Below are positions 3,458-32,000 of a stretch of DNA of 32,000 nt, in pieces. Position 1 is the first letter of the stretch. The number at the start of each line of letters is the position of its first letter. The position numbers were made by a program, and so were the translations under genes. A model generated the notes under the pieces. The model was not told where the DNA came from. It searched no databases and worked only from the letters and a program-made list of their open reading frames with translations. Origin of the DNA: an uncultured Actinomycetota bacterium. GTDB lineage: Bacteria; Actinomycetota; Actinomycetes; Mycobacteriales; Mycobacteriaceae. The stretch lies in assembly GCA_963778135.1 (NCBI GenBank), contig CAVZTC010000009.1:1231826-1263825 (forward strand), given 5' to 3'.

Positions 3458-3459
3458 GC

Positions 3460-6547: not shown

Positions 6548-6778
6548 GTGAGCGTCAACCCATTTGACGACGACAATGGCAGCTTCTTCGTCTTGATCAA
6601 TGACGAAGAGCAGCATAGCTTGTGGCCAACCTTTGCCGATGTCCCCGCCGGTTGGCGGGTGGTCTTCGGCGAGGCGGCGCGGGCCGAATGCCTGGACTAC
6701 ATCGAACAGAACTGGCCCGATATCCGGCCCAAGAGTCTGCGTGACCGCCTTGCCCGGCAACAGTCCGGTGGTGCGTAA
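6548..6778 (+). CDS. mbtH: MbtH-family NRPS accessory protein
   Basis: The sequence [60 protein letters not shown] is the MbtH signature with its three conserved Trp. The ORF track opens at 6476. I prefer the in-frame GTG at 6548, preceded by AGGAG at 6535-6539, which gives the usual ~76 aa. Confidence 0.9.
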
Positions 6779-8052: not shown

Positions 8053-8169
8053 CGAAGCAGCCCCTATTTAATCGATTGTCAAAAATTGCGGGCCCGTCTC
8101 TGTTCCGGTATGGCGTGGACTTGTCTACGATGAGGCGTCCTATTTGCCCACATAGGGAGGAGTGAGTAC

Positions 8170-10306: not shown

Positions 10307-10345
10307 TGGCCACCGGCTCATCGAGGGCATTCGTAAGGTTGTTGA

Positions 10346-10997: not shown

Positions 10998-12767
10998 GTG
11001 TTGATGGCGCCAGCCAAGAGCTCCGTAGCCACCGAACCTCGCAGTATGTTCAGTCTGCTTCGCGCTCACTGGGTCTCGATGACGGTGAGCGTGTTGTTGC
11101 TCGGCGTTGCGACCATGCTTACCTTGCTGCAGCCGCTACTGGCTGGTCGGCTCGTCGACCGCGCAGCGTCGGGCTCATCGACCCTGGCGTTGGCCGTCTT
11201 GCTGGTGATCATGCTTGTCGGACAGCTGCTCCTCGAGTGGTTAGGGCATTTCCAGCTGGGACGGACCGGCGAGCAAATCGTGTTGCGGTTGCGAGCTGTC
11301 TTCACCGATCATGTGGTGCGCCTGCCCATCGGATTGTTGGACCGGGGTCGCACCGGAGACCTGCTGGCCCGCGGAACCAGCGACGCCAGCATGGTGCGGG
11401 AAATGCCACGCGCCTTCGCCGACATCGTGTTTGGGGTGCTGACCTTCGTCGGTGTGAGTGTTTTCATGCTCACAATTGATGCCCTCACCGTGAGTATCGT
11501 GGCAGCTGTCATGGTGGCCGTGTTCGCTGTCGGCAGCCCGTTTCTGTCACGGATCCAACGCGCCGCACTCAATCGCCAAGTCGCGCTTGGTAACTACACG
11601 GCCGCGTTGGACCGAGCCCTGGGCGCCGCTCGCACCATAAAGCTGTTCGGCGCCGAAGACCGCGAAGTAGCGGCCATCAGCTCAAGCGCGCTCGCCGCCT
11701 GTAAGTCTGGGGTTCGCATCGCGCTTTCCACCGCCGTCTTCGAATCCATTACCAGGTTGGGATTTACCGGCTCGTTTTTGGCGATCATGATTATCGATGG
11801 GAGCCGCGTCGCGGACGGTCACCTAACGGTTGGCCAGTTCGTCAGCCTGTTCGCCTTCGCTATGTACGCGAGTCAGCCCGTCACCGCCGGCTTTGTCGCA
11901 CTCACCAAACTGCGTACCGCGGCCGGTGGATATCAACATCTCAGCGCCACCCTGCGGGAACTGCCGGAAGGCGATCCACCGTCAGTTGCCGTTGCCGACG
12001 GGGTCACGAGGCCGTGCGCTGTGCAGGCAGACCAGAACACCGCGCCACTGGTCCAGTTCGAGCACGTGTCGTTTTCCTACGGCGAGGCACCCGTGCTCGA
12101 CGACGTCTCCTTCACGCTCGGCCCAGATCAGATCACCGCGCTGATCGGGCCGTCTGGCGCTGGAAAGTCAACCATCCTGGCGCTGCTGTGCCGCTTCCAC
12201 GACCCGGGCGCCGGGACGGTGCGCTGGGAAGGCCACGACTTCCGCAGCATCCCCCTCAGGGAACTCCGCGGCCGACTCGGGCTTTTGGAACAGGACGCAC
12301 CCGTGCTGCACGGCACCATCCGCGACAACCTGCTCATCGCCGACCCCGACGCCGACGACGCCGACTTATGGCTCGTCCTCGAACAGGCGAACATCGCCGA
12401 CGAAATCGCCAGTCTTCCTGAACGACTCGACACCCCCGTACTCGAACGCGGGCGCGGCCTTTCCGGTGGCCAACGCCAGCGACTAGCCCTGGGCCGTGCA
12501 TTTCTATCGCGATCGCAGCTCATCCTCATGGACGAACCAACCGCACATCTCGACCGCGCCAACGAATACGACGTCATGACCAAGCTGCTGCAGGCGCGCG
12601 GCCAACGCAGTCTCCTCGTGGTTGCCCACCGTCTCTCCACCGTGACCAATGCCGACCAAATCCTGGTTCTTCAGCACGGCCGGATCCAAGCAGCCGGCAC
12701 CCACACTGAACTATTGCGCATGCCCATTTACCGCGAACTTATCGAGCGGGAACTCGCCGCCCACTAG
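10998..12767 (+). CDS. ABC exporter, fused permease/ATP-binding half-transporter
   Basis: 589 aa with an N-terminal six-helix-type ABC membrane domain. The NBD has Walker A GPSGAGKST, a Q-loop LLEQD, the signature LSGGQRQRLALGRAF, Walker B LILMDEPTAHLD and the H-loop VVAHRLST. Candidate starts are GTG 10998, TTG 11001 and ATG 11004. Confidence 0.9.
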   Translation: MLMAPAKSSVATEPRSMFSLLRAHWVSMTVSVLLLGVATMLTLLQPLLAGRLVDRAASGSSTLALAVLLVIMLVGQLLLEWLGHFQLGRTGEQIVLRLRAVFTDHVVRLPIGLLDRGRTGDLLARGTSDASMVREMPRAFADIVFGVLTFVGVSVFMLTIDALTVSIVAAVMVAVFAVGSPFLSRIQRAALNRQVALGNYTAALDRALGAARTIKLFGAEDREVAAISSSALAACKSGVRIALSTAVFESITRLGFTGSFLAIMIIDGSRVADGHLTVGQFVSLFAFAMYASQPVTAGFVALTKLRTAAGGYQHLSATLRELPEGDPPSVAVADGVTRPCAVQADQNTAPLVQFEHVSFSYGEAPVLDDVSFTLGPDQITALIGPSGAGKSTILALLCRFHDPGAGTVRWEGHDFRSIPLRELRGRLGLLEQDAPVLHGTIRDNLLIADPDADDADLWLVLEQANIADEIASLPERLDTPVLERGRGLSGGQRQRLALGRAFLSRSQLILMDEPTAHLDRANEYDVMTKLLQARGQRSLLVVAHRLSTVTNADQILVLQHGRIQAAGTHTELLRMPIYRELIERELAAH

Positions 12768-13243: not shown

Positions 13244-13415
13244 CACCAACCTGACCAACCAAGCCCAACATCCAACTCGCGACCGCGCCGCGACTAACAA
13301 CCGGCCGAACCGCGGCAACACGCTGCCGCCCCCCAAAAAAACGCCAGGTCAAACGCCCGAACTGAATGTATACCCCGGAGCCATACTCTTTCGACCGAGT
13401 GATTAGGGTAGCCGG

Positions 13416-15782
13416 ATGGAACGTGATGGCCAGGCGCTTCCGCTTTCGCGGGCACAGCTAGGTATTTGGTTTGCGCAGCAAGCGGGTTTCTTCGATACGG
13501 AGTGGCCGATCGGCCTATTTCTGATAGTCGAGGCGGCTGTAGTACCTGATGTGGTTGAGCAGGCAATCCGGAGAGTAGTGGAAGAGGCTGAGCCAATCAG
13601 GGCCACTTTCTTCGAGGCGGATGGCGAGATTTACCAAAAGGTAATTGAAGACCCGGATATCGAGCTTCCGCTGTATGACCTGAGGTCCTCGAATGATCCC
13701 GTGCAGGAGGCGTACAGGATAGCGGAGTCGATCCAACGTAAGCCGATGCCGCTCGATGGCCCGTTGTTTAAATTTGCGTTATTGCGGACGAGGACCGATG
13801 AGTCCTACGTATTCCTGTGCTGCCACCATATCGTCGTCGACGGGTTCGGCATTGGAATTCTTGGGCATCGGATCGCGGCTGTCTACTCTGCACTGGTTTC
13901 TGGCGTGCCCATCCCGCCCGGGTTCTTCGGCTCGCTGCATGACCTGATTGAGTGCGAATCAGAATACGAAGCATCCGCCGAATATCACGACGATCTGGCC
14001 TACTGGAAAAGAAATCTTCCACCGGATACGGCACAGCAATATCGGTTGCCGCAGGCGACCGGAGGGGGTGATTCCGGCTGGCGCTCTGCGCCGGTACAAC
14101 TGGACCCTTCGGTTGTCGCTCGAATACAGGAGTTATCGGAGTTTTTGGGTGTTCGCCGAGCCTCGGTGACGACGGCGGCGTGCGCGCTTGTGGTGCATGA
14201 ATTGTCCGCTGGGGGCCCCGAGGTGGTGCTCGACTTCCCGGTCAGTCGGCGCGTGCGTCCGGAGTCGAAGATGGTTCCCGGCATGTTCGCCGGGGTGGTG
14301 CCTTTGGTGTTGACGGCGTCGCCGGGATCGACGGTTGCCGGTTTTTGTGAGCATGTTGACGGACGAATACGAGAAACGCTGCAACATCAGCGTTTTCCGG
14401 TGCACATTCTTGAGGGCAGGGACCGCCTCCTTGACCCGCATGGCGCGGCACAACGGGTGAATATCAATTTCATCCCGGCCGCGATGAGTGGGACCTTCGG
14501 GGGTGCGCCGGGATCGGGATTGGTGACCACTTTTGGCCCGGTGGGCCACTTTGCGCTGTTCTTCCTGCGAGCCGGTGATGAGCTGTCGCTGAGCACCGCG
14601 GGTTGCGGGCAGCCGTTTTCGAATTTCTCCGTCGCCGATTTAGCGCGTCGATTGGAGCAGGTGGTGGTGGCGATGGCCGCCGACCCCTCCCGGCGGCTGG
14701 CGTCGATGGATCTGTTGGACGGTGGTGAGCACGCCCGGCTGGACGGCTGGGGGAATCGGGCGGTGTTGACCCGGCCGGCGAGCGCACCGGTGTCGATTCC
14801 GCCGTTGTGGGCCGCCCAAGTTGCACGCACGCCGGAGGCGGTGGCGCTGACGTTCGCGGGGCGCTGCACGACGTACCGGGGGCTTGAGGAGGCGTCGAAC
14901 CGGTTGGCGCACCTGCTGGTGGGCCGGGGTGTGGGTCCGGGGCAGTGTGTGGCGCTGCTGTTTACCCGTTCCATCGATGCGATTACCGCGATTACGGCGG
15001 TGCTGAAGACGGGGGCGGCCTATCTCCCCATCGATCCGGGCCTGCCGGCGGCCCGGATCGCGTTTATGCTCGCTGATGCGGCACCGGTGGCCGCGATCAC
15101 CACCACCGCGCTGGCCGCCCACCTCGAGGGCTATGACCTGCTGGTCATCGATGTCGAGGACCCCGCCATCGACACCCAACCCGTTACCGCGCTACCGGCG
15201 CCGCGCCCCGATGACCTGGCCTACCTGATCTACACCTCGGGCACCACCGGAACCCCCAAGGGCGTCGCGGTCAGTCATGCCGGCATTCCCGACTTAGTGG
15301 CCACCCGCGCGGAGCGTCTTGGCATCGGGCCGACGAGTCGCGTCCTGCAGTTTGCTCCGTTCATCTTCGATGCGTCGGTGGTGAACCTGTGGGTTGCGTT
15401 GTTGACCGGCGCGACCGCAGTACTGCCCGCCGAGGACCAAGCGCTACCGGGCCGGGAATTAGTGGACTTGATCGTCGAGCAGAACGTCTCTCACGGGGAA
15501 TTGACGCCCACCGCGATCGCCGCCCTCCCCGAACACCGAGCTGCACGGCATGACTGTGATTGCCGGCGGCGAGGTCTGCTCGACAGACCTTGTCGCGCGC
15601 TACGCCGATGCCGGCTCCTTCATCAACTCCTACGGCCCGACCGAGGCGAGCGTGGACCTGACCATGACGGGCCCGCTGGCTGCCGATTGCGGAACGCCAC
15701 CGATTGGTTACCCGGTGTCGTGGGCGGGGTTGTTTGTCCTGGATGGCTGGTTGCGCAGGGCGCCACTGGGTGCGGTCGGTGA
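13416..15782 (+). CDS. NRPS segment 1 (starter C domain plus first part of A1); meaningful translation ends at ~15528
   Basis: ORF-track protein begins [29 protein letters not shown] (C3 motif) lies at 13824-13844 and [17 protein letters not shown] (A3 motif) at ~15220. After ...[10 protein letters not shown] the ORF degenerates into an Arg/Cys-rich tail, while the +1 frame continues with [14 protein letters not shown]. Confidence 0.85.
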
Positions 15783-16480
15783 ACTGTATGCCGCGGGTCG
15801 CGGTGTGGCCTATGGGTATTGGGGCCGTTCACGCGAGACCGCGTCGCGGTTTGTGGCCTGCCCATTCGGGGGAGTCGGCGAACGCATGTATCGCACCGGG
15901 GATCTGGTGTGGTGGGGTGCTGATGGGCAGTTGCGGTATGCGGGGCGCGCTGATGAGCAGGTCAAGATCCGCGGGTATCGCATTGAGCTGGGCGAAGTCC
16001 GGGCCGCGCTGGCCCAGCTTGCGGGGGTGGAGCAGGCGGTGGTGATCGCCCGTGAGGACCGTCCTGGGGATCGGCGGCTGGTGGGTTATGTGACGGGGAC
16101 GGCGGACCCGGCCGCGGTGCGTAGCGTGCTGGCCGAGCGGCTGCCGGTCTATATGGTTCCCGCGGCCGTGGTGGTGGTGGAGGCGTTGCCGTCGACGCCT
16201 AACGGCAAGCTCGACGTCCGCGCGTTGCCGGCCCCCGATTTTGGCGATGTTGACCGGTATCACGCCCCAGCGACGCCGGTTGAGGAGATCTTGGCCGGTA
16301 TTTTCGCGCGGGTCTTGGGGTTAGCGCGGGTGGGGGTCGAGGACTCGTTTTTCGAGTTGGGTGGGGATTCCCTGTCGGCGATGCGCCTGATTGCGGTGGT
16401 CAACAAGTCGTTGGGTGCTGGTCTGTCGGTGCGGACGGTGTTTGAGGAGCCGACGATCGCGGGGTTGGCGCGGCATCTCG
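13416..16480 (+). other. NRPS module 1: C(starter-type)-A1-T1
   Basis: C1 spans ~13416-14700 (HHIVVDG at 13824-13844). A1 spans ~14740-16240 ([49 protein letters not shown]). T1 spans ~16260-16480 ([18 protein letters not shown] at ~16359-16376). Frameshift 1 lies inside A1. Confidence 0.8.
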
Positions 16481-19400
16481 GCGCAGACACGGTTGCGCGT
16501 CAGCCGCTGGTGGCTGGTGAGAGGCCGGCGGTGGTGCCGTTGTCGTTTGCCCAGCAGCGGTTGTGGTTTTTGAATCGGTTCGAGGGCGGGGTCGCCACCT
16601 ACAACATCCCGGTCGCGTTTCGGGTGAGCGGGGCGCTGGATGTCGAGGCGTTCGGTGTGGCGCTCGATGATGTGATCGCCCGTCATGAGTCGCTGCGCAC
16701 CGTGTTTCCCGATCGGGAGGGTGTGCCGGTCCAGCAGGTGATACCGGCGTCGGCGGGGTTGTGGCGGCGCGGTGGTGCCGCGGTGCTGGCGGTGCCGGAG
16801 GCCGAGGTGGTCGCGGAGTTGGTGGGGTTGGCCGGGTATCGGTTTGATTTGGCCGGCGAGGTCCCGATCCGCGCGCAGATCTATGCGCTGGGCCCCGAGC
16901 AGTATGTGGTGGGGATGGTGGTGCACCACATCGCGTTTGATGGGTGGTCGCTGGCCCCGATGGTGCGTGATGTGGCCCAGGCGTACGCGGCGCGCTGCCA
17001 GGGCGGCGCCCCGGGTTGGGCGCCGTTGCCGGTGCAGTATGTCGATTACACGTTGTGGCAACGGCAGTGCTTGGGCGAGGAGTCTGATCCGCACAGTGCG
17101 ATCGCCGCGCAGTTGGCCTACTGGCGCCAGGAGTTGGCGGGGCTGCCGCAGGTGGTGTCGCTGCCCACCGATCGGCCCCGTCCGGCGGTAGCCAGTTACC
17201 GCGGTGATGCGGTGGCGCTGGTCATTGAGGCGCCGGTGTGGGCGGGGGTCAAGGCGCTGGCCGCCGAGCACAACGCGACGCCCTCGATGGTGTTGCAGGC
17301 GGTCATGGCGGTGGTGTTGGCCAAGGCCGGGGTCGGTTCGGATGTGGTGATGGGTTCGGTGATCGCCGGGCGTTTGGATGAGGCGCTCGATGATCTGGTC
17401 GGGTTTTTCGTCAACACCTGGGTGTTGCGGGTCGGTGTCGAGGCCGGCGACCGGTTCGGTGAGGTGTTGGCGCGGGTGCGCGACAAGGCGCTGAATGCCT
17501 ACACCCATCAGGAGATTCCGTTTGAGTTGCTGGTGGAGCGGCTCAACCCGGTGCGTTCAGCGGCGCATCATCCGCTGTTTCAGGTGTGCATGGTGCTCCA
17601 GAACAATGCGCTCCCCGAGCAGATTGCGCTGGACGGGGTCGCCGTTGAGCCGCTGGCGACGTCCACCCACACCGCCAGGTTCGACCTGGACATCCAGCTG
17701 TGGGAGGTGCCCACCGGGGATCCGGGGGTGTCGATGGCCGCCGGTGCGGTGACCTATGCCACGGATTTGTTTGACCGGGCCAGCATCGAGCGGTTGGTCG
17801 GCTGGTTCGCGCGGGTCCTGCAAGCGGTCATCGCCAATGCCTTGGTGCCCGTCGCAGAGGTGTCGTTGCTGGATGCCGGTGAGCGTGATCGGGTGCTGTC
17901 CGACTGGTCTGGCGCCCAGGTGGAGGCGCCGGTAGGGGTGGCGCCGGCGTTGCTGGCTGCCGCGGTGGCCGCTGACCCGGACGCGGTGGCGGTCATCGAC
18001 GGCGACCGGCAGCTGTCGTATCGCGAGCTTGATGAGTGCTCGACGCGGTGGGCTCGGGTGCTGATCGAGACCGGGGTGGGTCCCGAGCGCGCAGTGGGTG
18101 TGGCGACGGGTCGGTCTGTGGAGTTGGTGGTCGCCTGGTGGGCGGTGGCCAAGGCCGGCGGGACCTATGTGCCGGTGGATCCGACCCATCCGGTGGCGCG
18201 GGTCGCAGCGGTATTGGATGCGGTGAGCGCGGAGTGTGTGTTGACCTGTGGTGTCGACACCATGGCCGCGGCCGGGGCCCGCCCGGTGCTGCGCATGGAT
18301 GTTTCAGACGCCCTGGACGTGTCCGCGCGTTCCGCGGAACCGATCACCGATGCCGAGCGGCTGGCGCCGCTGACGGTGGACAACTCCGCGTATGTGATCT
18401 TCACGTCCGGGTCTACCGGTGTCCCCAAGGGGGTGGCGGTCAGCCACGCCGGTCTGCTCGGGCTGGCCGCCGCGCTACGGGCGGTGTTCGAGGTGGATGC
18501 CGGTGCGCGGATCCTGATGGTGGCCGCACCGACCTTCGATGCCTCGATTAGCGAGATGTTGGTGGCGGTGGAGTCGGGGGCGGCGCTGGTGGTGGCGCCG
18601 CCGGAGGTGTATGCCGGTGCGGCGTTGACCGCGTTGCTGGCCGAGCAGCGGGTCAACGCCGCGAAATTGACCCCGTCGGTGCTGGCGACGCTGGATCGGG
18701 CCCGACTGGGCGGATTGGGCACCGTGGTCGTCGCCGGTGAGGCGTGCCCGGCGGAGTTGGTGCACACCTGGGTGCCGGGCCGGCGGATGGTCAACGCCTA
18801 CGGCCCCACCGAGGCCACCGTCTGGGCGACCTGTGCACGACTCGTGGCGGGCCAGCCCGTTACCATCGGCGCTCCGCTTGCGGGGGCGTGCGCGCTGGTG
18901 CTCGATTCCCGACTGAATCCGGCCCCGATCGCGGTGGTGGGCGAGTTGTATCTGGCCGGGCCCGGTCTGGCCCGCGGTTATGTGGGCCGGGCGGGGTTGA
19001 CCGCGGAACGCTTTGTAGCCAATCCTTTCGGGGGTGCCGTTGGCCAGAACGGGACGCCGGGAACACGGATGTATCGCACCGGGGACCTGGTGCGCTGGAC
19101 CCCGGCCGGTGACCTGGAGTACCTGGGTCGCGCTGATGCCCAGATCAAACTGCGTGGGCAGCGTATCGAGTTGGGTGAGATCGAAAACACCCTGTTGGCG
19201 TGCCCTCAGGTCAGCCAGGCCGCCGCGGCCGTGCATCACAGCGATACCGGTTCTGCGCTGGTCGCCTACATCACTGTGGAGGACACCGCCAGCCCCGATC
19301 ACGACGCCGAAAGCCTCGAAGAGTGGCAACACCTGCATGACGAGCTGTATGGCGCTGAGCTAGCCCAGGTCCCTGGGGTCCCGGGGGTCCCTGGGGTCCC

Positions 19401-22400
19401 TGGGGTCAATGGGATCGAGGCGCCGGGGTTCGGGATGGACTTTCGGGGCTGGAACAGCAGCTTTACCGGTGATCCGATTCCGCTGGAGGAGATGCTGGAG
19501 TGGCGTTCGGCCACGGTGGATCGGATCTTGGCCTTGGGGCCGCGGCGGGTGTTGGAGATCGGGGTGGGCAGCGGACTGCTGTTGTCGCAGATCGCCCCGC
19601 ACTGCGAACGCTATGTCGGCACCGATGTGTCGGGCGTGGTCATCGACAACATGGCCGGCGCGCTGCAGCGCCAGGGCCAGTGGCGGGATCGCGTCGAGTT
19701 ACACGCCCAGCCCGCTCACCTGGCTGAGGCGTTGCCGCGCGGCTATTTCGACACCATCATCGTCAACTCGGTCGTCCAGTACTTCCCGCACGCGGGGTAT
19801 CTGACCGAGGTCCTCGACACCGCGCTGGATTTGTTGGCCCCGGGTGGGGCGGTGTTTATCGGCGATGTGCGCAACCACGGCCTGGCCGCCGCGTTCTACA
19901 CCGCGGTCGTGTTGGCCGGTGCCGCCAGGTCAGAAACCTCGGATGCTATCGAGGCTGCCGAGATCAGTCAGCGGGTGCAGCGCGCGATGCTCGGCGAATC
20001 CGAATTGTTGTTGGCGCCGGAGTTTTTCACCGGTTGGGCCGGGGGTCAGGCGGTGGTGGCCGGGGTCGATATCGAAGTCAAGCGGGGATCGGCTGATAAC
20101 GAACTGACCCGGTATCGCTACGACGTCGTCATTCACACGGCCCCCACCGGGGTGTGTTCGCTGGCCACCGCGCCGGTGTGGGCGTGGGCCGACTGTGCGG
20201 GTCTGGACGGGCTGGGCGCCCGGTTGCAGTCCGGGCCTCGTACCGCGGTGCGCGTTACCGCCATCCCGGCCAGGGGGCTGTTCACCGACGTGCGTCGGCA
20301 CGCCGCCGTCGACGCCGCGGTGGCCGCGGGGGTTGCGCTGGGCGAGGTACTCGCCGACACCGACACTGGGGTCCCCCTGGCGGTGACCACTGAGCAGCTG
20401 CATCGCCTGGGTGAGGCCAGCGGGTATCGCGTCGCGGTCACCTGGGGTGCCCAGCCCGGCACGTTGGACGCGGTTTTCCTGGCTGCCACCGAGGCGGATG
20501 GTGAGCCCATGGCGGCGTTGACCGATATCTACCTGCCCGCGGCCGGGGATCGGCCGTACGCCAATGATCCGCAGATCACCGCCAAAGTCGGCGCGGTGCG
20601 GGCGCGGTTGAGTGCGTGGTTGCCCGAGTACATGGTGCCGGCGCACCTTGTGGTGCTTGACCAGTTTCCGTTGACGTCGTCGGGCAAGCTCGACCGTAAC
20701 GCGTTGCCGGCGCCGGTGTTTGACGCGAAACCGTTCCGGGCGCCGGCGACGCGGACCGAGGAGATCGTGGCCGGGGTGTTCGCGCAGGTGCTGGGCCTGG
20801 GTCGGGTCGGGCGCGACGACGACTTCTTTGCCCTGGGTGGGGATTCGTTGAGCGCCACTCGGGTGGCCGCGCGGTTGCAGGTCGCGGCGGGCAGTCAGGT
20901 GTCGGTGCGGTCGTTGTTCGAGGCGTCCACCGTCGCGTCGCTGGCCGAGTATCTGGGCCGCGATGGCGGTGGGCCGGTGCGCCCGCCGTTGGCGGTGATG
21001 ACGCGTCCGGCGGTGGTGCCGTTGTCGTTTGCCCAGCAGCGGTTGTGGTTCCTGGACCGGTTGGAGGGCGGGGTCGCCACCTACAACATTCCGGTCGCGT
21101 TTCGGGTGAGCGGGGCGCTGGATGTCGAGGCGTTCGGTGCGGCGCTCGATGATGTGATCGCCCGCCATGAGTCGCTGCGCACCGTGTTTCCCGATCGGGA
21201 GGGTGTGCCGGTCCAGCAGGTGATACCGGCGTCGGCGGGGTTGTGGCGGCGCGGGGGTGCCGCGGTGGCGGCGGTGCCGCACGACGAGGTGGCCGCGGAG
21301 TTGGTGGGGTTGGCCGGGTATCGGTTTGATTTGGCCGGCGAGGTCCCGATCCGCGCGCAGATCTATGCGCTGGGCCCCGAGCAGTATGTGGTGGGCATGG
21401 TGGTGCACCACATCGCGTGTGATGGGTGGTCGCTGGTCCCGATGGTGCGTGATGTGGCCCAGGCGTACGCGGCGCGCTGCCAGGGCGGCGCCCCGGGGTG
21501 GGCGGCGTTGCCGGTGCAGTATGTCGATTACACGTTGTGGCAACGGCGGTGGTTGGGCGAGGAGTCTGATCGGCACAGTGTGATCGCCGCGCAGTTGGCC
21601 TATTGGCGCCAGGAGTTGGCGGGGCTGCCGCAGGTGGCGTCGCTGCCCAGCGATCGGCCGCGTCCGGCGGTGCCCAGTTACCGCGGTGATGCGGTGGCGC
21701 TGGTTATTGAGGCGCCGGTGTGGGCGGGGGTCACGGCGCTGGCGGCGGCGCACAACGCGACGGCGTCGATGGTGTTGCAGGCGGTCATGGCGGTGGTGTT
21801 GGCCCGGGCCGGGGCCGGCGACGACATCGTGTTGGGTTCGGTGATTGCCGGGCGGTTGGATGAGGCGCTCGATGATCTGGTCGGGTTTTTCGTCAATACG
21901 TGGGTGTTGCGGGTCGGTGTGGAGGCCGGCGACCGGTTCGGTGAGGTGTTGGCGCGGGTGCGGCGCAAGGCGCTGGATGCCTACACCCATCAGGAGATTC
22001 CGTTTGAGTTGCTGGTGGAGCGGCTCAACCCGGTGCGTTCAGCGGCGCATCATCCGCTGTTTCAGGTGTGCATGGTGTTCCAGAACAATGCGCGCCCCGA
22101 GCAGGTCGCGCTGGACGGGGTCGCGGTGGAGCCGTTGGCGACGTCGACCCGGACCGCCAAGTTCGACCTGGATTTCCAGCTCAGCGAAATGCCCACCGGC
22201 GATCCGGGGGTGTCGATGGCCGCCGGGGTGGTGACCTATGCCACGGATTTGTTTGACCGGGCCAGCATCGAGCGGTTGGTCGGCTGGTTCGGGCGGGTGT
22301 TGGAGGCGGTGATCGCTGATGCCTCGGTGGTGGTCGGCGACGTGGCGTTGCTGGATGCCGGTGAGCGCGCCCGCCTGGATGGGTGGGGCAACCGCGCGGT

Positions 22401-25400
22401 GTTGACCCGGCCGGCCCCGACACCGGTGTCGATTCCGGTGCTGTGGGCCGCCCAAGTCGCGCGCATCCCTGAGGCGGTGGCGGTGACGTTCGAGGACCGC
22501 TGCATGACGTACCGGGAGCTTGATCAGGCCGCTAACCGGCTGGCGCATCTGTTGGTCGCCCAGGGTGTGGGTCCGGGACAGTGTGTGGTGCTGCTGTTTA
22601 GCCGTTCCATCGAGGCGATTGCGGCGATGTTGGCGGTGCTGAAGACGGGGGCGGCGTATTTGGCGATCGATCCGGGTCTGCCGGCGGCCCGGATCGGGGT
22701 GATCGTTGCCGATGCTGCGCCGATCGCCGCGGTGAGCACCGCCGGGCTGGCCGAGCGCCTCGACGGGTGTGTGCTGGTCATCGATGTCGGTGATATCTGG
22801 GCCCCCGCTGGTGACAGCCACCCGGTCGCCGCGTTGGCGCCACCGGCCGGTGAGGACATCGCGTACATCATTTACACCTCGGGGACTACTGGTGCGCCCA
22901 AGGGTGTGGCTGTGGCTCACCGCAACGTGACCCAGCTGTTGGAGGCGCTGGATGGCGAGGTGCCGCGTGCGGGGGTGTGGACGCAGTGTCATTCGTTGGC
23001 GTTCGACTTTTCGGTGTGGGAGATCTGGGGTGCGCTGCTCGGTGGCGGGCGGTTGGTGGTGGTCTCGGAGTTGGTGGCCCGCTCACCGGAGGACTTCCAT
23101 GCCTTATTGGTCGCTGAACGGGTCAGCGTTTTAAGTCGGACCCCGTCGGCGTTTTATACGTTGCCGGCCCCTGATGCGCTGGGGTCTGGGCGGGCAGATC
23201 AGCTGGCGGTTGAGGTTGTGGTGTTCGGCGGGGAAGCGCTGCAACCGCAGCGTTTGGGGTCGTGGCTGGATCATCCGGGATCGCCGCGGCTGATCAACAT
23301 GTATGGCATCACCGAGACGACGGTGCATGCGTCGGTGCGCGAGATCGGGATCGGTGATGTCACCAGCATCGCCAGTCCTATTGGGGTGCCGTTGGCGCAT
23401 CTTGGGTTTTTTGTGCTGGACGGGCGGCTCAATCCGGTGCCGGTGGGTGTGGTGGGGGAGTTGTATGTCGCCGGGTCGGGGTTGGCGTATGGGTATGTGC
23501 GCCGGGCCGGGTTGAGCGGGTCGCGGTTTGTGGCGTGTCCGTTCGGGAGTCCGGGGGCGTCGGGAACGCGGATGTATCGCACTGGGGACGTGGTGCGCTG
23601 GACTGCCCGGGGTGAGCTGGAGTACCTGGGTCGTGCTGATGAGCAGGTCAAACTGCGCGGGTATCGCATCGAGTTGGGGGAGATCGAAAACACCTTGTTG
23701 GCGTGTCCGCAGGTCAGCGGGGCCGCCGCCGCGGTGTATCACAGCGACACCGGTTCGCAGCTGGTCGCCTACATCACCGTCGGCGACACCGCCGGCTCCG
23801 AGCGTGACACCGAAAGCGTCGAAGAGTGGCACGAGCTGTATGACGAGTTGTATGGCGCTGAGCTAGCCCAGGTCCCTGGGGTTGAGGCGCCGGGGTTCGG
23901 GATGGACTTTCGGGGTTGGAACAGCAGCTTTACCGGTGATCCGATTCCGCTGGAGGAGATGATCGAGTGGCGTTCGGCCACGGTGGATCGGATCATGGCC
24001 CTACAACCGCGGCGGGTGTTGGAGATCGGGGTGGGCACCGGACTGCTGTTGTCGCAGATCGCCCCGCACTGCGATCACTATGTCGGCACCGATATGTCGG
24101 GCGTGGTCATCGAGAACCTGGCCCACGCGGTAGAGAGTCAGGGCCAGTGGCGCGATCGTGTCGAGTTGCGCGCCCAGCCCGCTCACCTGGCTGAGGGGTT
24201 GCCGCGCGGCTATTTCGACACCATCATCGTCAACTCGGTCGTCCAGTACTTCCCGCACGCGGGGTATCTGACCGAGGTCCTCGACACCGCGCTGGATTTG
24301 TTGGCCCCGGGTGGGGCGGTGTTTATCGGCGATGTGCGCAACCACGGCCTGGCCGCCGCGTTCTACACCGCGGTCGTGTTGGCCGGTGCCGCTAGGTCAG
24401 AAACCTCGGATGCTATCGAGGCTGCCGAGATCAGTCAGCGGGTGCAGCGCGCGATGCTCGGCGAATCCGAGTTGTTGTTGGCGCCGGAGTTTTTCACCGG
24501 TTGGGCCGGGGGTCAGGCGGTGGTGGCCGGGGTCGATATCGAAGTCAAGCGGGGATCGGCTGACAACGAACTGACCCGGTATCGCTACGACGTCGTCATT
24601 CACACGGCCCCTACCGGGGTGTGTTCGGTGGCCACCGCGCCGGTGTGGGCGTGGGCCGACTGCGCGGGTCTGGACGGGCTGGGCGCCCGGTTGCAGTCCG
24701 GGCCTCGTACCGCGGTGCGGGTGACCGCCATCCCGGCCAGGGGGCTGTTCACCGACGTGCGTCGGCACGCCGCCGTCGACGCCGCGGTGGCTGCGGGGGT
24801 TGCGCTGGGCGAGGTACTCGCCGACACCGACACTGGGGTCCCCCTGGCGGTGACCGCTGAGCAGCTGCATCGCCTGGGTGAGGCCAGCGGGTATCGCGTC
24901 GCGGTCACCTGGGGTGCCCAGCCCGGCACGTTGGACGCGGTTTTCCTGGCTGCCACTGAGGCGGATGGTGAGCCCATGGCGGCGTTGACCGATATCTACC
25001 TGCCCCCGGCGGGGGCCGGAGACCGGGCGCACGCCAATGATCCGCAGATCACCGCCAAAGTCGGCGCGGTGCGGGCGCGGTTGAGTGCGTGGTTGCCCGA
25101 GTACATGGTGCCGGCGCACCTTGTGGTGCTCGAGGCGTTCCCGGTGACGTCGTCGGGCAAGCTCGACCGTAAAGCCCTGCCGGCGCCGGTGTTGGACGCG
25201 AAACCGTTCCGGGCCCCGGCGACGCGGACTGAGGAGATCGTGGCCGCGGTGTTCGCGCAGGTGCTGGGCCTGGGTCGGGTCGGGCGCGACGACGATTTCT
25301 TTGCCCTGGGTGGGGATTCGTTGAGCGCCACTCGGGTGGCCGCGCGGCTGCAGGTGGGGTCGGGCAGACGGGTGTCGGTGCGGTCGTTGTTTGAGGCGCC

Positions 25401-26835
25401 CACGGTGGCTGGTCTGGCTGAGTATCTGGGCCGGGAGGGTCAGGGGCCGGTGCGTCCGCCGTTGGCGGTGATGACGCGCCCGGCGGTGGTGCCGTTGTCG
25501 TTTGCTCAGCAGCGGTTGTGGTTTTTGAACCGGTTGGAGGGCGGGGTCGCCACCTACAACATCCCGGTCGCGTTTCGGGTCAGCGGGGCGCTGGATGTCG
25601 AGGCGTTCGGCGCGGCGCTCGATGATGTGATCGCCCGCCACGAGTCGCTGCGCACCGTGTTTCCCGATGAGGACGGTGTGCCGGTTCAGCAGGTGATACC
25701 GGCGGGGGTGGGGTTGTGGCGGCGCGGAGGTGCCGCGGTGGAGGCGGTGCCGGAGGCCGAGGTGGTCGCGGAGTTGGTGGGGTTGGCCGGGTATCGGTTT
25801 AATTTGGCCGGCGAGGTCCCAATTCGGGCGCAGATCTATGCGGTGGGCCCCGAGCAGTACGTGGTGGGGATCGTGGTGCACCACATCGCTATTGATGGGT
25901 GGTCGCTGGCCCCGATGGTGCGTGATGTGGCCCAGGCGTACGCGGCGCGCTGCCACGGTGTGGCCCCGGGGTGGGCGCCGTTGGCGGTGCAGTATGTCGA
26001 TTACACGTTGTGGCAACGGCAGTGGTTGGGCGAGGAGTCTGATCCGCGCAGTGTGATCGCCGCGCAGTTGGCGTATTGGCGCCAGGAGTTGGCCGGTGTG
26101 CCCCAGGTGGTGTCGCTGCCCAGCGATCGGCCGCGCCCGGCGGTCGTCAGTTACCGCGGTGATGCGGTGGCGCTGCGTATCGAGGCGCCGGTGTGGGCGG
26201 GGGTCAAGGCGCTGGCCGCCGCGCACAACGCGACGGTCTCGATGGTGTTGCAGGCGGTCGTGGCGGTGGTGCTGGCCCGCGGCGGGGCCGGTGACGACAT
26301 CGTGTTGGGTTCGGTGATCGCCGGGCGGTTGGATGAGGCGCTCGATGATCTGGTCGGGTTTTTCGTCAACACGTGGGTGTTGCGGGTCGGCGTGCACCCC
26401 GCAGACCAGTTCGGTGAGGTGTTGGCGCGGGTGCGACGCAAGGCGCTGGATGCCTACACCCATCAGGAGATTCCGTTTGAGTTGCTGGTGGAGCGGCTCA
26501 ACCCGGTGCGCTCAGCGGCGCATCATCCGCTGTTTCAGGTGTGCATGATTTTCCAGAACAATGCGCGGCCCGAGGCGGCGCTGCAGGGCGTCGCGGTGGG
26601 AGCCGCTGGAGATGTCGACCCGGACCGCCAAGTTCGACCTGGATATCGAGCTGGGCGAGGTGGATACCGGCGATCCGGGGGTGTCGATGGCCGCCGGGTT
26701 CGTGTCGTATGCCACGGATTTGTTCGACCGGGCCAGCATCGAGCGGTTGGTCGGCTGGTTCGGGCGGGTCCTGCAGGCGGTCATCGCCGACCCGTCGGTG
26801 GTGGTCGGCGACGTGGCGTTGCTGGATGCCGCTGA
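15550..26835 (+). CDS. NRPS segment 2 (rest of A1-T1, modules 2 and 3, most of C4); meaningful translation runs ~15529-26598
   Basis: 3761-aa ORF containing [36 protein letters not shown], three [11 protein letters not shown] carrier motifs, three HHIAxDGWS condensation motifs and two embedded methyltransferases. After ...GVAV at 26598 the ORF turns into an Arg/Gly-rich tail, while the +1 frame continues with [15 protein letters not shown]. Confidence 0.9.
19330..20566 (+). other. embedded SAM-dependent N-methyltransferase domain MT2 (inserted between A-domain core motifs A8 and A9/A10)
   Basis: [17 protein letters not shown] is the SAM-binding motif I (VLExGxGxG). [15 protein letters not shown] matches the NRPS N-MT core motif NELSxYRYxAV. 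The domain is flanked upstream by [20 protein letters not shown] (A8) and downstream by LPEYMVP...SSGKLDR (A9/A10). Confidence 0.85.
19369..19413 (+). repeat. in-frame 9-bp tandem repeat, 4 good copies plus 1 degenerate, encoding (VPG)n
   Basis: The repeat reads GTCCCTGGG GTCCCGGGG GTCCCTGGG GTCCCTGGG GTCAATGGG and encodes [15 protein letters not shown]. The paralogous site in module 3 (about 23868-23880) has a single VPG; [11 protein letters not shown] there corresponds to [23 protein letters not shown] here. Confidence 0.9.
19417..22360. repeat. ~2.9-kb direct repeat, copy a (MT2-A2 tail-T2-C3)
   Basis: Matches 23884-26835 at offset 4467. The offset grows to 4473 after a 6-nt indel near 20540/25010 and to 4474 after the extra G at 26598-26600. 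The antisense ORFs 19930..21990 and 24397..26463 in the track are near-identical. Confidence 0.85.
20962..23832. repeat. 2.87-kb direct repeat, copy 1 (T2-C3 linker, C3, A3 core)
   Basis: Matches 28706-31576 at a constant offset of 7744 nt. By hand I counted roughly 30 mismatches, nearly all in the first ~900 bp. In the supplied track the antisense ORF translations 22039..22992 and 29783..30736 are letter-for-letter identical. Confidence 0.9.
21003..25430 (+). other. NRPS module 3: C3-A3(interrupted by MT3)-T3
   Basis: C3 spans ~21003-22340 (HHIACDG at 21406-21426). The A3 core spans ~22375-23832 ([41 protein letters not shown]). MT3 spans ~23833-25038. The A3 tail runs to ~25190. T3 spans ~25210-25430. 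Confidence 0.85.
23833..25038 (+). other. embedded SAM-dependent N-methyltransferase domain MT3
   Basis: [17 protein letters not shown] and [15 protein letters not shown] are present. Over most of its length it differs from MT2 by only two residues (the stretch [21 protein letters not shown]...ALTDIYLP). Confidence 0.85.
23884..26835. repeat. ~2.9-kb direct repeat, copy b (MT3-A3 tail-T3-C4)
   Basis: See copy a. Confidence 0.85.
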
Positions 26836-28700
26836 GCGTGATCTGGTGCTGTCCGACTGGTCCGGCGCCGGTGTGGGGGCGCCGATAGGGGTGGTGTCGG
26901 CGTTGCTGGCGGCCGCGGTGGCCGCTGACCCGGACGCGGTGGCAGTCATCGACGGCGAGCGGCAGCTGTCGTACCTGCAGCTTGATGAGTGCTCGACGCG
27001 GTGGGCTCGGGTGCTGATCGAGACCGGGGTGGGTCCCGAGCGCGCGGTAGGCGTGGCGATGGACCGGTCTGTGGAGTTGGTGGTGGCCTTCTGGGCGGTG
27101 GCCAAGGCCGGCGGGGTGTATGTGCCGGTGAATCCGGCGCATCCGGTGGCGCGGGTCGCGGCGGTGCTCGACGCGGCCGGGGCGGTGTGTGTGGTGACCT
27201 GTGGTGTCGACACCGTGGCCGGGGCCGGGGCCCGCCCGGTGCTGCGGATCGATGCTTCGGACGCTGCCGACGTGTCCGGGCGGAGCGCGCAGCCGATCAC
27301 TGACGCTGAGCGGCTGGCGGCGTTGACGGTGACTAACACGGCGTATGTGATGTTCACGTCCGGGTCCACCGGTGTCCCCAAGGGGGTGGCGGTCAGCCAC
27401 GCCGGTCTGCTGGGGCTGGCCGCCGCACTGCGGGCGGTGTTCGGGGTGGGTGCCGACGCGCGGGTATTGATGGCGGCCGCGCTGACCTTTGATGCCTCGG
27501 TCGGCGAGTTGTTGGTGGCGGTGGAGTCGGGGGCGGCGCTGGTGGTCGCGCCGCCGGAGGTGTATGCCGGTGCGGCGTTGACGGCGTTGCTGGACGAACA
27601 GCGGGTGAGCACCGCGCTGTTGACCCCGACGGTGCTGGCGACGCTGGATCGGGCCCGGCTGACCGGGCCGCAGGCGTTACACACGCTGGTCGCTATCGGG
27701 GAGGCCTGCCCGCCGGAGGTGGTGGACGCGTGGGCGCCGGGCCGGCAGATGTTCAACGCCTACGGCCCGACCGAGGCCAGCGTGTGGGCCACCTGTGCAC
27801 GACTGGTGGCGGGTCAGCCGGTCAGTATCGGCGCCCCGCTTGCGGGGGCGTGTGTGCTGGTGCTCGATGCCCGGCTGAACCCGGCCCCGGTGGGGGTGGT
27901 GGGCGAGTTGTATCTGGCCGGGCCTGGTCTGGCGCACGGTTATCTGGGCCGGGCGGGGTTGACCGCGGAACGCTTTGTAGCCAATCCTTTCGAGGACGCC
28001 GTTGGCCAGAACGGGACGCCGGAAACACGGATGTATCGCACCGGGGACCTGGTGCGCTGGACCCCCCGAGGTGACCTGGATTATCTGGGTCGCGCTGATG
28101 CCCAGATCAAACTGCGTGGGCAGCGTATCGAGTTGGGTGAGATCGAAAACACCCTGTTGGCGTGCCCGCAGGTCAGCCAGGCCGCCGCGGCCGTGCATCA
28201 CAGCGACACCGGTTCGCAGCTGGTCGCCTACATCACCGTGCAGCACCCCGCCAGCCCCGAGCGCGACACCGAAACCCTCGACGAATGGCCGCACCGGTAT
28301 GAGGAGCCGGATGGCGCTGAGGACACCACACTGAGCGCGGTGCGGGCGCGGTTACGTCAGTGGTTGCCCGAGTACATGGTGCCGGCACACATCGTGGTGC
28401 TCGAGGCATTCCCGGTCACGTCGTCGGGCAAGCTCGACCGTAAAGCGTTGCCGGCGCCGGTGTTTGACGCGAAACCGTTCCGGGCGCCGGCGACGCGGAC
28501 CGAGGAGATCGTGGCCGGGGTGTTCGCACAGGTGCTGGGCCTGGGTCGGGTCGGGCGTGACGACGACTTCTTTGCGCTGGGTGGGGATTCGTTGAGCGCC
28601 ACGCGGGTGGCCGCGCGGCTGCAGGTCCCGTTGGGCAGGCAAGTGCTGGTGCGGGCGTTGTTTGAGGCGCCCACCGTGGCTGATCTGGCCGACCATCTGC
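25470..28700 (+). other. NRPS module 4: C4-A4(no MT, scar)-T4
   Basis: C4 spans ~25470-26835 (HHIAIDG at 25879-25899; frameshift 2 at 26598-26600). A4 spans ~26880-28440 and is a paralogue of A2 ([31 protein letters not shown]). T4 spans ~28480-28700. Confidence 0.8.
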
Positions 28701-31700
28701 AGCGCCATGGCGGTGGGCCGGTGCGACCGCCGTTGGCGGTGATGACGCGTCCGGCGGTGGTGCCGTTGTCGTTTGCCCAGCAGCGGTTGTGGTTCCTGGA
28801 CCGGTTCGCCGGCGAGGTGGGCACCTACAACATTCCGGTCGCGTTTCGGGTGAGCGGGGCGCTGGATGTCGAGGCGTTCGGTGCGGCGCTCGATGATGTG
28901 ATCGCCCGCCATGAGTCGCTGCGCACCGTGTTTCCCGATCGGGAGGGTGTGCCGGTCCAGCAGGTGATACCGGCGTCGGCGGGGTTGTGGCGGCGCGGGG
29001 GTGCTGCGGTGGCGGCGGTGCCGCACGACGAGGTGGCCGCGGAGTTGGTGGGGTTGGCCGGGTATCGGTTTGATTTGGCCGGCGAGGTCCCGATCCGCGC
29101 GCAGATCTATGCGCTCGCACCCGAGCAGTATGTGGTGGGCATGGTGGTGCACCACATCGCGTGTGACGGGGGGTCGCTGGTCCCGATGGTGCGTGATGTG
29201 GCCCAGGCGTACGCGGCGCGCTGCCAGGGCGGCGCCCCAAGCTGGGCGGCGTTGCCGGTGCAGTATGTCGATTACACGTTGTGGCAACGGCGGTGGTTGG
29301 GCGAGGAGTCTGACCCGCACAGTGTGATCGCCGCACAGTTGGCCTATTGGCGCCAGGAATTGGCGGGGCTGCCGCAGGTGGCGTCGCTGCCCACCGATCG
29401 GCCGCGTCCGGCGGTGCCCAGTTACCGCGGTGATGCGGTGGCGCTGGTTATTGAGGCGCCGGTGTGGGCGGGGGTCACGGCGCTGGCGGCGGCGCACAAC
29501 GCGACGGCGTCGATGGTGTTGCAGGCGGTCATGGCGGTGGTGTTGGCCCGCGGCGGGGCCGGCGACGACATCGTGTTGGGTTCGGTGATCGCCGGGCGGT
29601 TGGATGAGGCGCTCGATGATCTGGTCGGGTTTTTCGTCAATACGTGGGTGTTGCGGGTCGGTGTGGAGGCCGGCGACCGGTTCGGTGAGGTGTTGGCGCG
29701 GGTGCGGCGCAAGGCGCTGGATGCCTACACCCATCAGGAGATTCCGTTTGAGTTGCTGGTGGAGCGGCTCAACCCGGTGCGTTCAGCGGCGCATCATCCG
29801 CTGTTTCAGGTGTGCATGGTGTTCCAGAACAATGCGCGCCCCGAGCAGGTCGCGCTGGACGGGGTCGCGGTGGAGCCGCTGGCGACGTCGACCCGGACCG
29901 CCAAGTTCGACCTGGATTTCCAGCTCAGCGAAATGCCCACCGGCGATCCGGGGGTGTCGATGGCCGCCGGGGTGGTGACCTATGCCACGGATTTGTTTGA
30001 CCGGGCCAGCATCGAGCGGTTGGTCGGCTGGTTCGGGCGGGTGTTGGAGGCGGTGATCGCTGATGCCTCGGTGGTGGTCGGCGACGTGGCGTTGCTGGAT
30101 GCCGGTGAGCGCGCCCGCCTGGATGGGTGGGGCAACCGCGCGGTGTTGACCCGGCCGGCCCCGACACCGGTGTCGATTCCGGTGCTGTGGGCCGCCCAAG
30201 TCGCGCGCATCCCTGAGGCGGTGGCGGTGACGTTCGAGGACCGCTGCATGACGTACCGGGAGCTTGATCAGGCCGCTAACCGGCTGGCGCATCTGTTGGT
30301 CGCCCAGGGTGTGGGTCCGGGACAGTGTGTGGTGCTGCTGTTTAGCCGTTCCATCGAGGCGATTGCGGCGATGTTGGCGGTGCTGAAGACGGGGGCGGCG
30401 TATTTGGCGATCGATCCGGGTCTGCCGGCGGCCCGGATCGGGGTGATCGTTGCCGATGCTGCGCCGATCGCCGCGGTGAGCACCGCCGGGCTGGCCGAGC
30501 GCCTCGACGGGTGTGTGCTGGTCATCGATGTCGGTGATATCTGGGCCCCCGCTGGTGACAGCCACCCGGTCGCCGCGTTGGCGCCACCGGCCGGTGAGGA
30601 CATCGCGTACATCATTTACACCTCGGGGACTACTGGTGCGCCCAAGGGTGTGGCTGTGGCTCACCGCAACGTGACCCAGCTGTTGGAGGCGCTGGATGGC
30701 GAGGTGCCGCGTGCGGGGGTGTGGACGCAGTGTCATTCGTTGGCGTTCGACTTTTCGGTGTGGGAGATCTGGGGTGCGCTGCTCGGTGGCGGGCGGTTGG
30801 TGGTGGTCTCGGAGTTGGTGGCCCGCTCACCGGAGGACTTCCATGCCTTACTGGTCGCTGAACGGGTCAGCGTTTTAAGTCGGACCCCGTCGGCGTTTTA
30901 TACGTTGCCGGCCCCTGATGCGCTGGGGTCTGGGCGGGCAGATCAGCTGGCGGTTGAGGTTGTGGTGTTCGGCGGGGAAGCGCTGCAACCGCAGCGTTTG
31001 GGGTCGTGGCTGGATCATCCGGGATCGCCGCGGCTGATCAACATGTATGGCATCACCGAGACGACGGTGCATGCGTCGGTGCGCGAGATCGGGATCGGTG
31101 ATGTCACCAGCATCGCCAGTCCTATTGGGGTGCCGTTGGCGCATCTTGGGTTTTTTGTGCTGGACGGGCGGCTCAATCCGGTGCCGGTGGGTGTGGTGGG
31201 GGAGTTGTATGTCGCCGGGTCGGGGTTGGCGTATGGGTATGCGCGCCGGGCCGGGTTGAGCGGGTCGCGGTTTGTGGCGTGTCCGTTCGGGAGTCCGGGG
31301 GCGTCGGGAACGCGGATGTATCGCACTGGGGACGTGGTGCGCTGGACTGCCCGGGGTGAGCTGGAGTACCTGGGTCGTGCTGATGAGCAGGTCAAACTGC
31401 GCGGGTATCGCATCGAGTTGGGGGAGATCGAAAACACCCTGCTGGCGTGTGCGCAGGTCAGCGGGGCCGCCGCTGCGGTGTATCACAGCGACACCGGTTC
31501 GCAGCTGGTCGCCTACATCACCGTCGGCGACACCGCCGGCTCCGAGCGTGACACCGAAAGCGTCGAAGAGTGGCACCACGACCCGCAGATCACCAGCAAA
31601 CTCAGCGCCGTGCGTGCGCAGTTAAGTGCATGGTTGCCCGGGTACATGGTGCCGGCGCACATTGTGGTGCTCGAGGCGTTTCCGGTGACGTCGTCGGGCA

Positions 31701-32000
31701 AGCTCGACCGTAAAGCCTTGCCGGCGCCGGTGTTTGACGCGAAACCGTTCCGGGCGCCGCGGACCCGGACCGAGGAGATCGTGGCCGGGGTGTTCGCCGA
31801 GGTGCTGGGCCTGGGTCGGGTCGGGTGTGATGACGATTTCTTCGCTCTGGGTGGGGATTCGTTGAGCGCCACTCGGGTGGCCGCGCGGCTGCAGGTGGCT
31901 TTGGACAGACGGGTGTTGGTGCGGTCGTTGTTCGAGGCGTCTACCGTCGCCGATCTGGCCGACCATCTGCAGCGCCATGGTGGCGGGCCGGCCCGCCCCC
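26600..32000 (+). CDS. NRPS segment 3 (end of C4, A4-T4, C5-A5-T5), open at the right edge
   Basis: Not in the ORF track because it has no stop codon in the window. My translation in the frame of position 26600 reads [64 protein letters not shown]... It continues through [28 protein letters not shown], two [11 protein letters not shown] motifs, [26 protein letters not shown] and [11 protein letters not shown]. It ends ...[14 protein letters not shown] at 31999. Confidence 0.85.
28706..31576. repeat. 2.87-kb direct repeat, copy 2 (T4-C5 linker, C5, A5 core)
   Basis: See copy 1. Identity ends abruptly at GAAGAGTGGCAC (23821-23832 and 31565-31576), the point where MT3 begins in module 3. Confidence 0.9.
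28747..31970 (+). other. NRPS module 5: C5-A5(no MT, scar)-T5
   Basis: C5 spans ~28747-30090 (HHIACDGGS from 29150). A5 spans ~30120-31700 and is near-identical to the A3 core. T5 spans ~31750-31970 ([11 protein letters not shown]). The window ends exactly where the earlier modules begin their next C domain, so at least one more C domain is expected beyond 32000. Confidence 0.8.

Follow-up and report, generated by a model that had tools for sequence, protein, structure and literature searches.

Probable gene conversion between modules 3 and 5 of a mycobacterial nonribosomal peptide synthetase gene

Described synthetases and the repeat in modules 3 and 5

Nonribosomal peptide synthetases (NRPS) and polyketide synthases (PKS) are known to undergo concerted evolution and internal recombination (Medema et al. 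2014, PMC4256081), and exchange within one cluster between adenylation (A) domains for the same residue has been described for A4Leu and A7Leu of the syringafactin family (Goetze et al. 2019, PMC7472662). The NRPS gene mps1 of Mycobacterium avium subsp. paratuberculosis (MAP) has five modules in C-type strains, which make a lipopentapeptide (L5P), and three in S-type strains, which make a lipotripeptide (L3P) (PMC8471605, PMC8103206). The mycolactone PKS have domains that are 98.7-100% identical, undergo deletions in laboratory passage, and occur as natural variants without a whole module (PMC2569948). Here we analyzed an NRPS gene on contig CAVZTC010000009.1 (positions 1,231,826 to 1,263,825, forward strand; assembly GCA_963778135.1) of an uncultured Actinomycetota bacterium placed in the Mycobacteriaceae. 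This 32,000-nucleotide stretch, numbered from its first base, is the window referred to throughout, and modules 3 and 5 of the gene carry a near-identical direct repeat of 2871 bp.

Pfam matches and core motifs gave the architecture C1-A1-T1 / C2-A2(MT)-T2 / C3-A3(MT)-T3 / C4-A4-T4 / C5-A5-T5, with five modules within the window (C, condensation; T, thiolation; MT, N-methyltransferase). The C-A-T order recurs with HHxxxDG, A3-A10 and LGGxS motifs, as in a multi-modular NRPS, and the coding sequence is spread over three frames (frame 3, 13407-15779; frame 1, 15505-26832; frame 2, 26549-31999). The gene opens directly with a C domain (residues 7-334, Pfam) that shows no DNA similarity to C2-C5 by blastn and is consistent with a lipo-initiation domain. 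No epimerisation domain was found within the window.

Like the synthetases in which concerted evolution has been described, this one has domains far more alike than their position predicts, a mosaic of incongruent blocks, homogenised A domains for the same residue, and tract edges within or between domains. It differs from them in that a tract edge coincides with the scar of an MT deletion and in that the host is an uncharacterised Mycobacterium. Like MAP mps1, it is a mycobacterial NRPS with a C domain at its start and an MT in module 2 (N-Me-Val in L5P), and the difference between MAP strains, two internal modules, is the same change that a crossover between the repeat copies would make here; the two are likened by outcome, not by mechanism. 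It is unlike mps1 in having two MT domains, at least five modules, and an upstream PPE gene, insertion sequence (IS) fragment and ABC transporter. This comparison was made by description, the best homologues found for the gene being 60-65% identical. A sequence-only reading of the window had already invoked mps1 as a precedent for a lipopentapeptide or a lipotripeptide depending on strain type, and the published outcome agrees (PMC8471605, PMC8103206). With mlsA and mlsB of M. ulcerans and relatives, the gene shares a mycobacterial megasynthase with near-identical repeated domains for which gene conversion is invoked, and in the repeats of those genes deletions occur in the laboratory (PMC2569948). 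Those genes are plasmid-borne, encode PKS and reach 98.7-100% identity over nearly all domains, whereas here one module pair is at 99% and the rest are at 80-95%.

We put at about 75% the probability that the repeat is real, that it lies in a lipopeptide-type NRPS, and that it goes back to an old two-module duplication, separate MT losses and a recent gene conversion between modules 3 and 5. On this reconstruction, an ancestral unit [C-A(MT)-T][C-A(MT)-T] would have been duplicated long ago to give modules 2-3 and 4-5, after which modules 4 and 5 would each have lost the embedded MT by a separate in-frame deletion that left a scar. Far more recently, recombination without crossover, that is gene conversion, would have copied the C domain and A core between modules 3 and 5, leaving them 99% identical at silent and replacement sites alike. 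The tract would end right at the 1.2-kb heterology made by the MT and, on its left, fade into the T-domain and linker region. As a by-product, the two copies would form a good substrate for a RecA-type crossover, with an in-frame loss or gain of 7744 bp, or two modules.

An ungapped comparison at an offset of 7744 bp aligned 20962-23832 with 28706-31576 with 32 mismatches in 2871 bp and no gaps (98.9% identity). The sequence-only reading had described ~99%-identical 2.87-kb direct repeats 7,744 bp apart and had counted roughly 30 mismatches by eye; the description stands, as does its account of the domain content, the linker, C domain and A core of modules 3 and 5, which the motif map reproduces. 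The mismatches are unevenly spread, with 25 in 20962-21846 (2.8%) against 7 in 21847-23832 (0.35%; Fisher p = 4e-8), and the observed maximum chi-square for mismatch clustering was reached by 0 of 1000 permutations. Their crowding into the first ~900 bp had been recognised by eye, as had a patch of six mismatches at 21063-21077 where LEGGVAT is replaced by FAGEVGT, and both are confirmed. A stretch from 21850 to 23100, reported then as free of differences, is nearly so, interrupted by one synonymous mismatch at 22135. Just beyond this site begins the longest perfect run (971 bp, Table 1), and exact identity in every other module pair extends over at most 195 bp. Chance cannot explain the identity of the copies: within this gene, A cores unrelated to each other reach just 48-63%.

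The two edges of the repeat differ in kind. The right edge is exact, with mismatches beginning at 23833, whereas the left edge is soft: the ungapped blastn match widens to 20582-23832 versus 28326-31576 (3251 bp, 97.6%), and the added segment, 20582-20961, belongs to a family of at least four A10-T segments that are 81-95% identical. Minus-strand open reading frames (ORFs) across the repeat matched no Pfam family and were rejected as genes, being taken for shadow ORFs of high-GC DNA; the comparison with Rfam gave no matches.

We aligned the four module units and scored their identity per 150-bp window. C2-C5 were 79-100% identical to one another in these windows. The A cores fell into two types, with A2 and A4 at 79-94%, A3 and A5 at 99-100%, and 48-63% between the types, and MT2 and MT3 were 91-99% identical despite residing in different A-core types. 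Adjacent blocks therefore pair incongruently (all C domains alike, A domains 2 with 4 and 3 with 5, MT domains 2 with 3), which is the signature of repeated internal recombination, and the whole gene is a mosaic of homogenised cassettes, which the sequence-only reading had not noticed.

Synonymous divergence (dS), calculated by the Nei-Gojobori method, separates the tract from its surroundings. Between modules 3 and 5, dS was 0.18 in the upstream A10-T-linker segment, 0.042 in the C domain, 0.0095 in the A core, and 0.28 after the right edge. The values between modules 2 and 4 were 0.175 in the C domain, 0.216 in the A core and 0.20 in the tail after the scar; their upstream segments are not comparable, that of module 2 being the divergent tail of module 1. 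Both flanks of the repeat thus match the module 2/4 pair in age, and the C-A core alone is young, by a factor of 5 to 20. A dS far lower in the tract than in its flanks, together with the incongruence of adjacent blocks, is what gene conversion leaves. Because the identity extends to silent sites, it cannot be explained by selection for the same substrate.

Copies that are nearly identical, in register and free of gaps over 2.9-3.25 kb would likewise result from one recent segmental duplication of C3 plus the A3 core, with no earlier duplication and with all differences added by later point mutation. The flanks speak against it: both are homologous at dS 0.18-0.28, the age of the module 2/4 pair, and a new insertion would not land within an already paralogous module of matching domain order. 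The mismatches do so as well, since they are non-uniform (p = 4e-8) and since the differences peculiar to module 5 lie in tight patches, for example six within 15 bp, unlike independent point mutations. We consider such a duplication quite improbable. Where the sequence-only reading had offered a recent duplication or a gene-conversion tract, the dS profile (0.18/0.04/0.01/0.28) favours the conversion over the simple recent duplication. Micro-conversion from C2 or C4 was also tried as the origin of the mismatch patches and was rejected, as module 5 alone departs from modules 2, 3 and 4 at 19 of the 32 mismatch sites.

Probable methyltransferase losses in modules 4 and 5

The A2 and A3 domains are both interrupted by an MT that carries an S-adenosylmethionine motif and lies between A8 (GRxDxQxK) and A9 (LPxYMxP). 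The distance from A8 to A9 is 498 amino acids in A2 and 488 in A3, and the inserts have VLEIGVGxG motifs and matches to Methyltransf_12, Methyltransf_23, Methyltransf_25 and Methyltransf_11. A5 corresponds to A3 minus 1203 bp (23833-25035), and A4 is without a counterpart of the A2 block 19369-20586. The spacing between A8 and A9 remains enlarged in both, at 92 amino acids in A4 and 87 in A5, compared with 66 in the uninterrupted A1 and 65-74 in 251 ordinary A domains. Sequences flanking the MT are conserved in 23 MT-interrupted A domains of homologous proteins, where the right flank reads ANDPQTNxKxSAVRQxLSAxLPxYMVP, and A4 and A5 retain only pieces of these flanks (Table 1). Because A4 and A5 keep such relics and an enlarged spacing, modules 4 and 5 appear to have lost the MT independently, rather than modules 2 and 3 having gained it.

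Natural in-frame loss of an MT from an interrupted A domain has reportedly been described by Fewer and colleagues in 2008 for mcyA of Anabaena and related cyanobacteria. As reported there, a block of ~1.2 kb between A8 and A9 has been cleanly excised in frame with the A domain apparently intact; here, by contrast, a single gene shows two such excisions, whose breakpoints differ. A further form of scar was seen in the homologue P0252 (59% identical), which around residues 1151-1260 keeps the right flank DLYLPP...ANDPRT. In this NRPS family, interrupted A domains seem to have lost their MT repeatedly.

The right edge of the repeat is itself the MT-deletion scar, a point missed in the sequence-only reading. 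On the reading of a recent conversion, the tract halts to the base at the 1.2-kb MT heterology, and this would mean either that the heterology limited the tract or that the tract ended in an MT that was deleted later.

Frameshifts, simulated crossover products and module number

The offset of the copies, 7744, equals 3 x 2581 + 1, and the reading frame is 1 for copy 1 and 2 for copy 2. The extra base had been traced by eye to a stray G at 26598-26600, and the module alignment bears this out (frameshift 2, Table 1). With this G removed, a frame of 5498 codons opens from 15505 to the window end. We simulated crossovers at three points in the repeat, and in each the frame was open from 15505 to the window end, in agreement with the earlier proposal that recombination between the copies deletes in frame and removes frameshift 2. 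The simulated recombinant reads M1-M2-(C3/5-A3/5-T5)-..., without MT3, T3, module 4 and the C5-A5 core. If the frameshifts are real, this deletion would not restore the gene, because the frameshift in A1 (frameshift 1) lies outside the repeat.

A further +1 frameshift is implied at ~9815 near a GGGG run, upstream of the NRPS gene, where a PPE-MPTR gene at 8170-9831 (frame 1) seems to continue at 9647-10306 (frame 2) with pentapeptide-2 repeats. All three frameshifts in the window are +1, and past the two NRPS shifts the frames run on without a stop over 11.3 and 5.4 kb, their motifs intact. These long open frames point toward assembly error, as do the origin of the nearest relatives, which are contigs named contig_N from ENA assemblies, and the split NRPS of a related locus, L081; the six syntenic genes in 1-5947, which are intact, point against it. 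We judge assembly error somewhat more likely than pseudogenisation. The homopolymer context was set aside as weak evidence of sequencing error, as G/C runs of at least 3 occur about once per 25 bp here. In L081 (10001-22463), the NRPS is divided into overlapping ORFs of 820, 96, 2772 and >540 amino acids, which suggests frameshift-prone assembly of high-GC NRPS genes in the data from which this locus comes.

The same observations bear on the repeat itself, whose second copy a long-read metagenome assembler or polishing step could in principle have created or homogenised from a single copy or from two clearly different ones. The single contig to which the identical N-terminal ORF and the aldehyde dehydrogenase map, the contig_N origin of the relatives, the three +1 frameshifts beside G/C runs and the split NRPS in L081 all fit an artefact of this kind. 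They have to be set against copies that differ at 32 sites and have different paralogous flanks on both sides, a domain order and reading frame that are correct across both junctions, a left boundary that decays gradually, and a right boundary that falls on an MT scar while module 4 independently has a scar of another form; the six genes in 1-5947 are again intact. We therefore give an artefactual repeat very little credence.

Gene conversion after an older duplication remains the reading we prefer, and several points weigh against it. Neither an outgroup nor a same-species genome was found, and the conversion may have run either way and have come before or after the MT deletion; the tract could also have stopped within an MT domain lost afterwards. 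The source is apparently a long-read assembly, in which polishing with cross-mapped reads could exaggerate the identity at the center of the repeat. Two frameshifts break the gene and, if genuine, leave it inactive, so that its functional consequences fall away. Finally, no length variant has been observed, no same-species sequence being present among the collections searched.

These collections comprised proteins, genomes and metagenomes, in which the only 100% matches were the ORFs of the window itself, on one 1.278-Mb contig. Exact-protein look-ups with the ABC transporter, the NRPS ORFs of 788 and 3761 amino acids and the aldehyde dehydrogenase gave no match, and a protein search for the remainder of the gene, past 32000, did not recover its downstream ORF. 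In protein searches, the next-best N-terminal homologue was 62-65% identical and the best C-terminal homologue 60%. A scan of the genome collection with the MT3-T3-C4 segment gave matches of at most 57% identity, and a metagenome scan with an exact 27-mer common to both copies gave none. No close relative carrying the gene was found in these searches, the best identity being 55-65%.

The repeat was proposed in the sequence-only reading to be set up for variation in module number, and we retain this as a possibility. It has the properties that such variation calls for, namely 2871 bp at 98.9% identity, an exact core of 971 bp and a crossover that keeps the frame, and the outcome is mechanistically plausible because these two copies recombined recently. 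Unequal exchange could also add two modules. A second direct repeat, between MT2 and MT3 (Table 1), is absent from the earlier account; a crossover there would be a second in-frame route, changing the gene by one module.

A stronger version of the proposal is that the locus is of the contingency type, with the repeats kept for the variation in lipopeptide length that two modules, often and reversibly deleted and duplicated, would give a population. Long repeats in the same orientation with a perfect core, an in-frame outcome, a second in-frame repeat in MT2/MT3 and the evidence of recent recombination between these very copies are all compatible with it, and there are mycobacterial parallels in MAP mps1, whose strains differ by two internal modules (PMC8471605, PMC8103206), and in the mycolactone PKS, whose variants differ by one (PMC2569948). 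Against it stand the lack of any observed variant in the collections described above, the difficulty of reversing a deletion once one copy is lost, and the fact that keeping the same substrate at positions 3 and 5 suffices to explain why conversion was tolerated. Such repeats are also a recurrent minority in NRPS genes (4 of 80 sampled loci). We regard a contingency locus as highly improbable. A fuller history, in which the gene is a snapshot of duplication, two scarred MT excisions, a conversion stopped by a scar, and recombination now making alleles that are shorter or longer by 7744 bp (two modules) or 4467 bp (one module) in natural populations, with lipopeptide length differing from cell to cell or from strain to strain, seems to us unlikely.

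Of the 80 NRPS loci that we fetched from other bacteria, 4 contained direct repeats 500 bp or longer with an identity of 90% or more, none of the 4 being mycobacterial. Internal repeats of high identity are a recurrent minority feature of NRPS genes and not a rarity. Two loci from metagenome-assembled genomes (MAGs) have repeats more extreme than the one described here: L016 (Acidobacteriota MAG) repeats 1563-5916 at 5982-10335 (4354 bp at 100%), and L067 (Actinomycetota MAG) repeats 1-1100 at 3188-4287 (1100 bp at 99.8%). Either could be a real module duplication or a MAG assembly artefact.

The locus illustrates a mechanism of evolution that is already known, and its gene may be broken or its assembly imperfect. 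Its modest interest lies chiefly in how clean the scars and the tract boundaries are, these being natural recombination and excision points in an NRPS. They would mark, to the base, where such an enzyme tolerates C-A exchange and MT excision, which is useful for enzyme re-engineering. Should length variants exist in nature, the gene would join MAP mps1 as a second lipopeptide synthetase of mycobacteria with strain-dependent product length; such lipopeptides are surface antigens.

Predicted substrates and gene neighbourhood

At every specificity-pocket position, A3 and A5 agree. They share a core, and the MT is present in A3 only; modules 3 and 5 are therefore expected to load one and the same amino acid, which the peptide should carry N-methylated at position 3 and unmethylated at position 5. 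The Stachelhaus-type codes, which we read from an alignment to GrsA, are internally consistent and serve as leads only: that of both A3 and A5 is presumably DFWSVGMVHK, threonine-like, and we take those of A2 and A4 to be DASKVAAVWK and DAGLVIAVWK, from the same alignment and with the same limit. The DNA of A2 at 18520-19200 is 79-94% identical per 150-bp window, ~85% overall, to that of A4 at 27473-28160. In the GrsA numbering, these two domains presumably differ at 3 of 9 variable pocket positions (239, S/G; 278, K/L; 301, A/I), which hints at a divergence of substrate between A2 and A4, unlike the homogenised A3 and A5. The best match of A5 among solved structures was the second module of LgrA, and this does not settle its specificity.

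Table 1. Positions of the repeat copies, methyltransferase scars, frameshifts and accompanying genes in the window.
Feature	Coordinates	Strand	Basis
Repeat copy 1: T2-C3 linker, C3, A3 core, ending after motif A8 in the first residues of the MT insert	20962..23832	+	Offset-7744 comparison, motif positions
Repeat copy 2: T4-C5 linker, C5, A5 core through motif A8 to the MT-deletion scar	28706..31576	+	Offset-7744 comparison, motif positions
Longest perfect run between copies, 971 bp	22136-23106 = 29880-30850	+	Exact match between copies
Left extension of copy 1 (end of A2, T2), 88% versus 28326-28705	20582..20961	+	blastn/identity
MT block in A3 between A8 and A9, 1203 bp/401 codons; missing from A5; sets the right end of the repeat	23833..25035	+	Methyltransf_12 match, residues 2824-2923 of the frame-1 ORF; VLEIGVGTG at 24016
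A5 MT-deletion scar: left relic ESVEEWH (31556-31576) fused directly to right relic	31556..31618	+	Translation comparison
A4 MT-deletion scar: degenerate relic of 20 codons (compare A2 19309-19368), then directly LSAVRARL	28271..28354	+	Translation comparison
Second direct repeat, MT2 versus MT3: 12 mismatches/800 bp (98.5%), offset 4467, a multiple of 3	19704..20503 vs 24171-24970	+	Module alignment
Frameshift 1 (+1) in A1, between motifs A4 and A5, beside a CCCC run	15528..15545	+	Open-frame map
Frameshift 2: one extra G (GGG versus GG in modules 3/5, TG in module 2), near the end of C4, between the repeat copies	26598..26600	+	Module alignment
NRPS gene, runs off the window end	13416..32000	+	Pfam Condensation, AMP-binding, PP-binding, Methyltransf; core motifs; open-frame map
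MbtH-like protein, usual NRPS partner, ~6.6 kb upstream of the NRPS start	6476..6778	+	Pfam PF03621, E = 2.4e-29
ABC transporter with membrane and ATPase domains, directly upstream of the NRPS gene	10998..12767	+	Domain matches

Upstream of the NRPS gene, the PPE protein with pentapeptide-2 (MPTR-type) repeats and the close homologues, all of which are from Mycobacterium, mark the window as mycobacterial. The ABC transporter next to the NRPS gene is presumably an exporter. A short ORF at 10491-10898, between the PPE gene and the transporter, matches a DDE transposase domain (IS240-type; Pfam E = 2e-8) over no more than its first ~30 positions and is probably what remains of an IS. Locus L081 holds P0003, a homologue of the N-terminal part (61% identical), with three glycosyltransferases, methyltransferases and an MbtH gene upstream; this locus reads as a glycopeptidolipid (GPL)-like cluster. 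L082, the nearest relative found (93% identity in the aldehyde dehydrogenase, 88% in DNA), is syntenic with the window up to 5947, past which L082 has a MarR gene and a kinase-WD40 gene in place of the MbtH-PPE-IS-ABC-NRPS block. The GC content drops to 55-62% in 7-14 kb, and the NRPS region may be an island or the result of a rearrangement.

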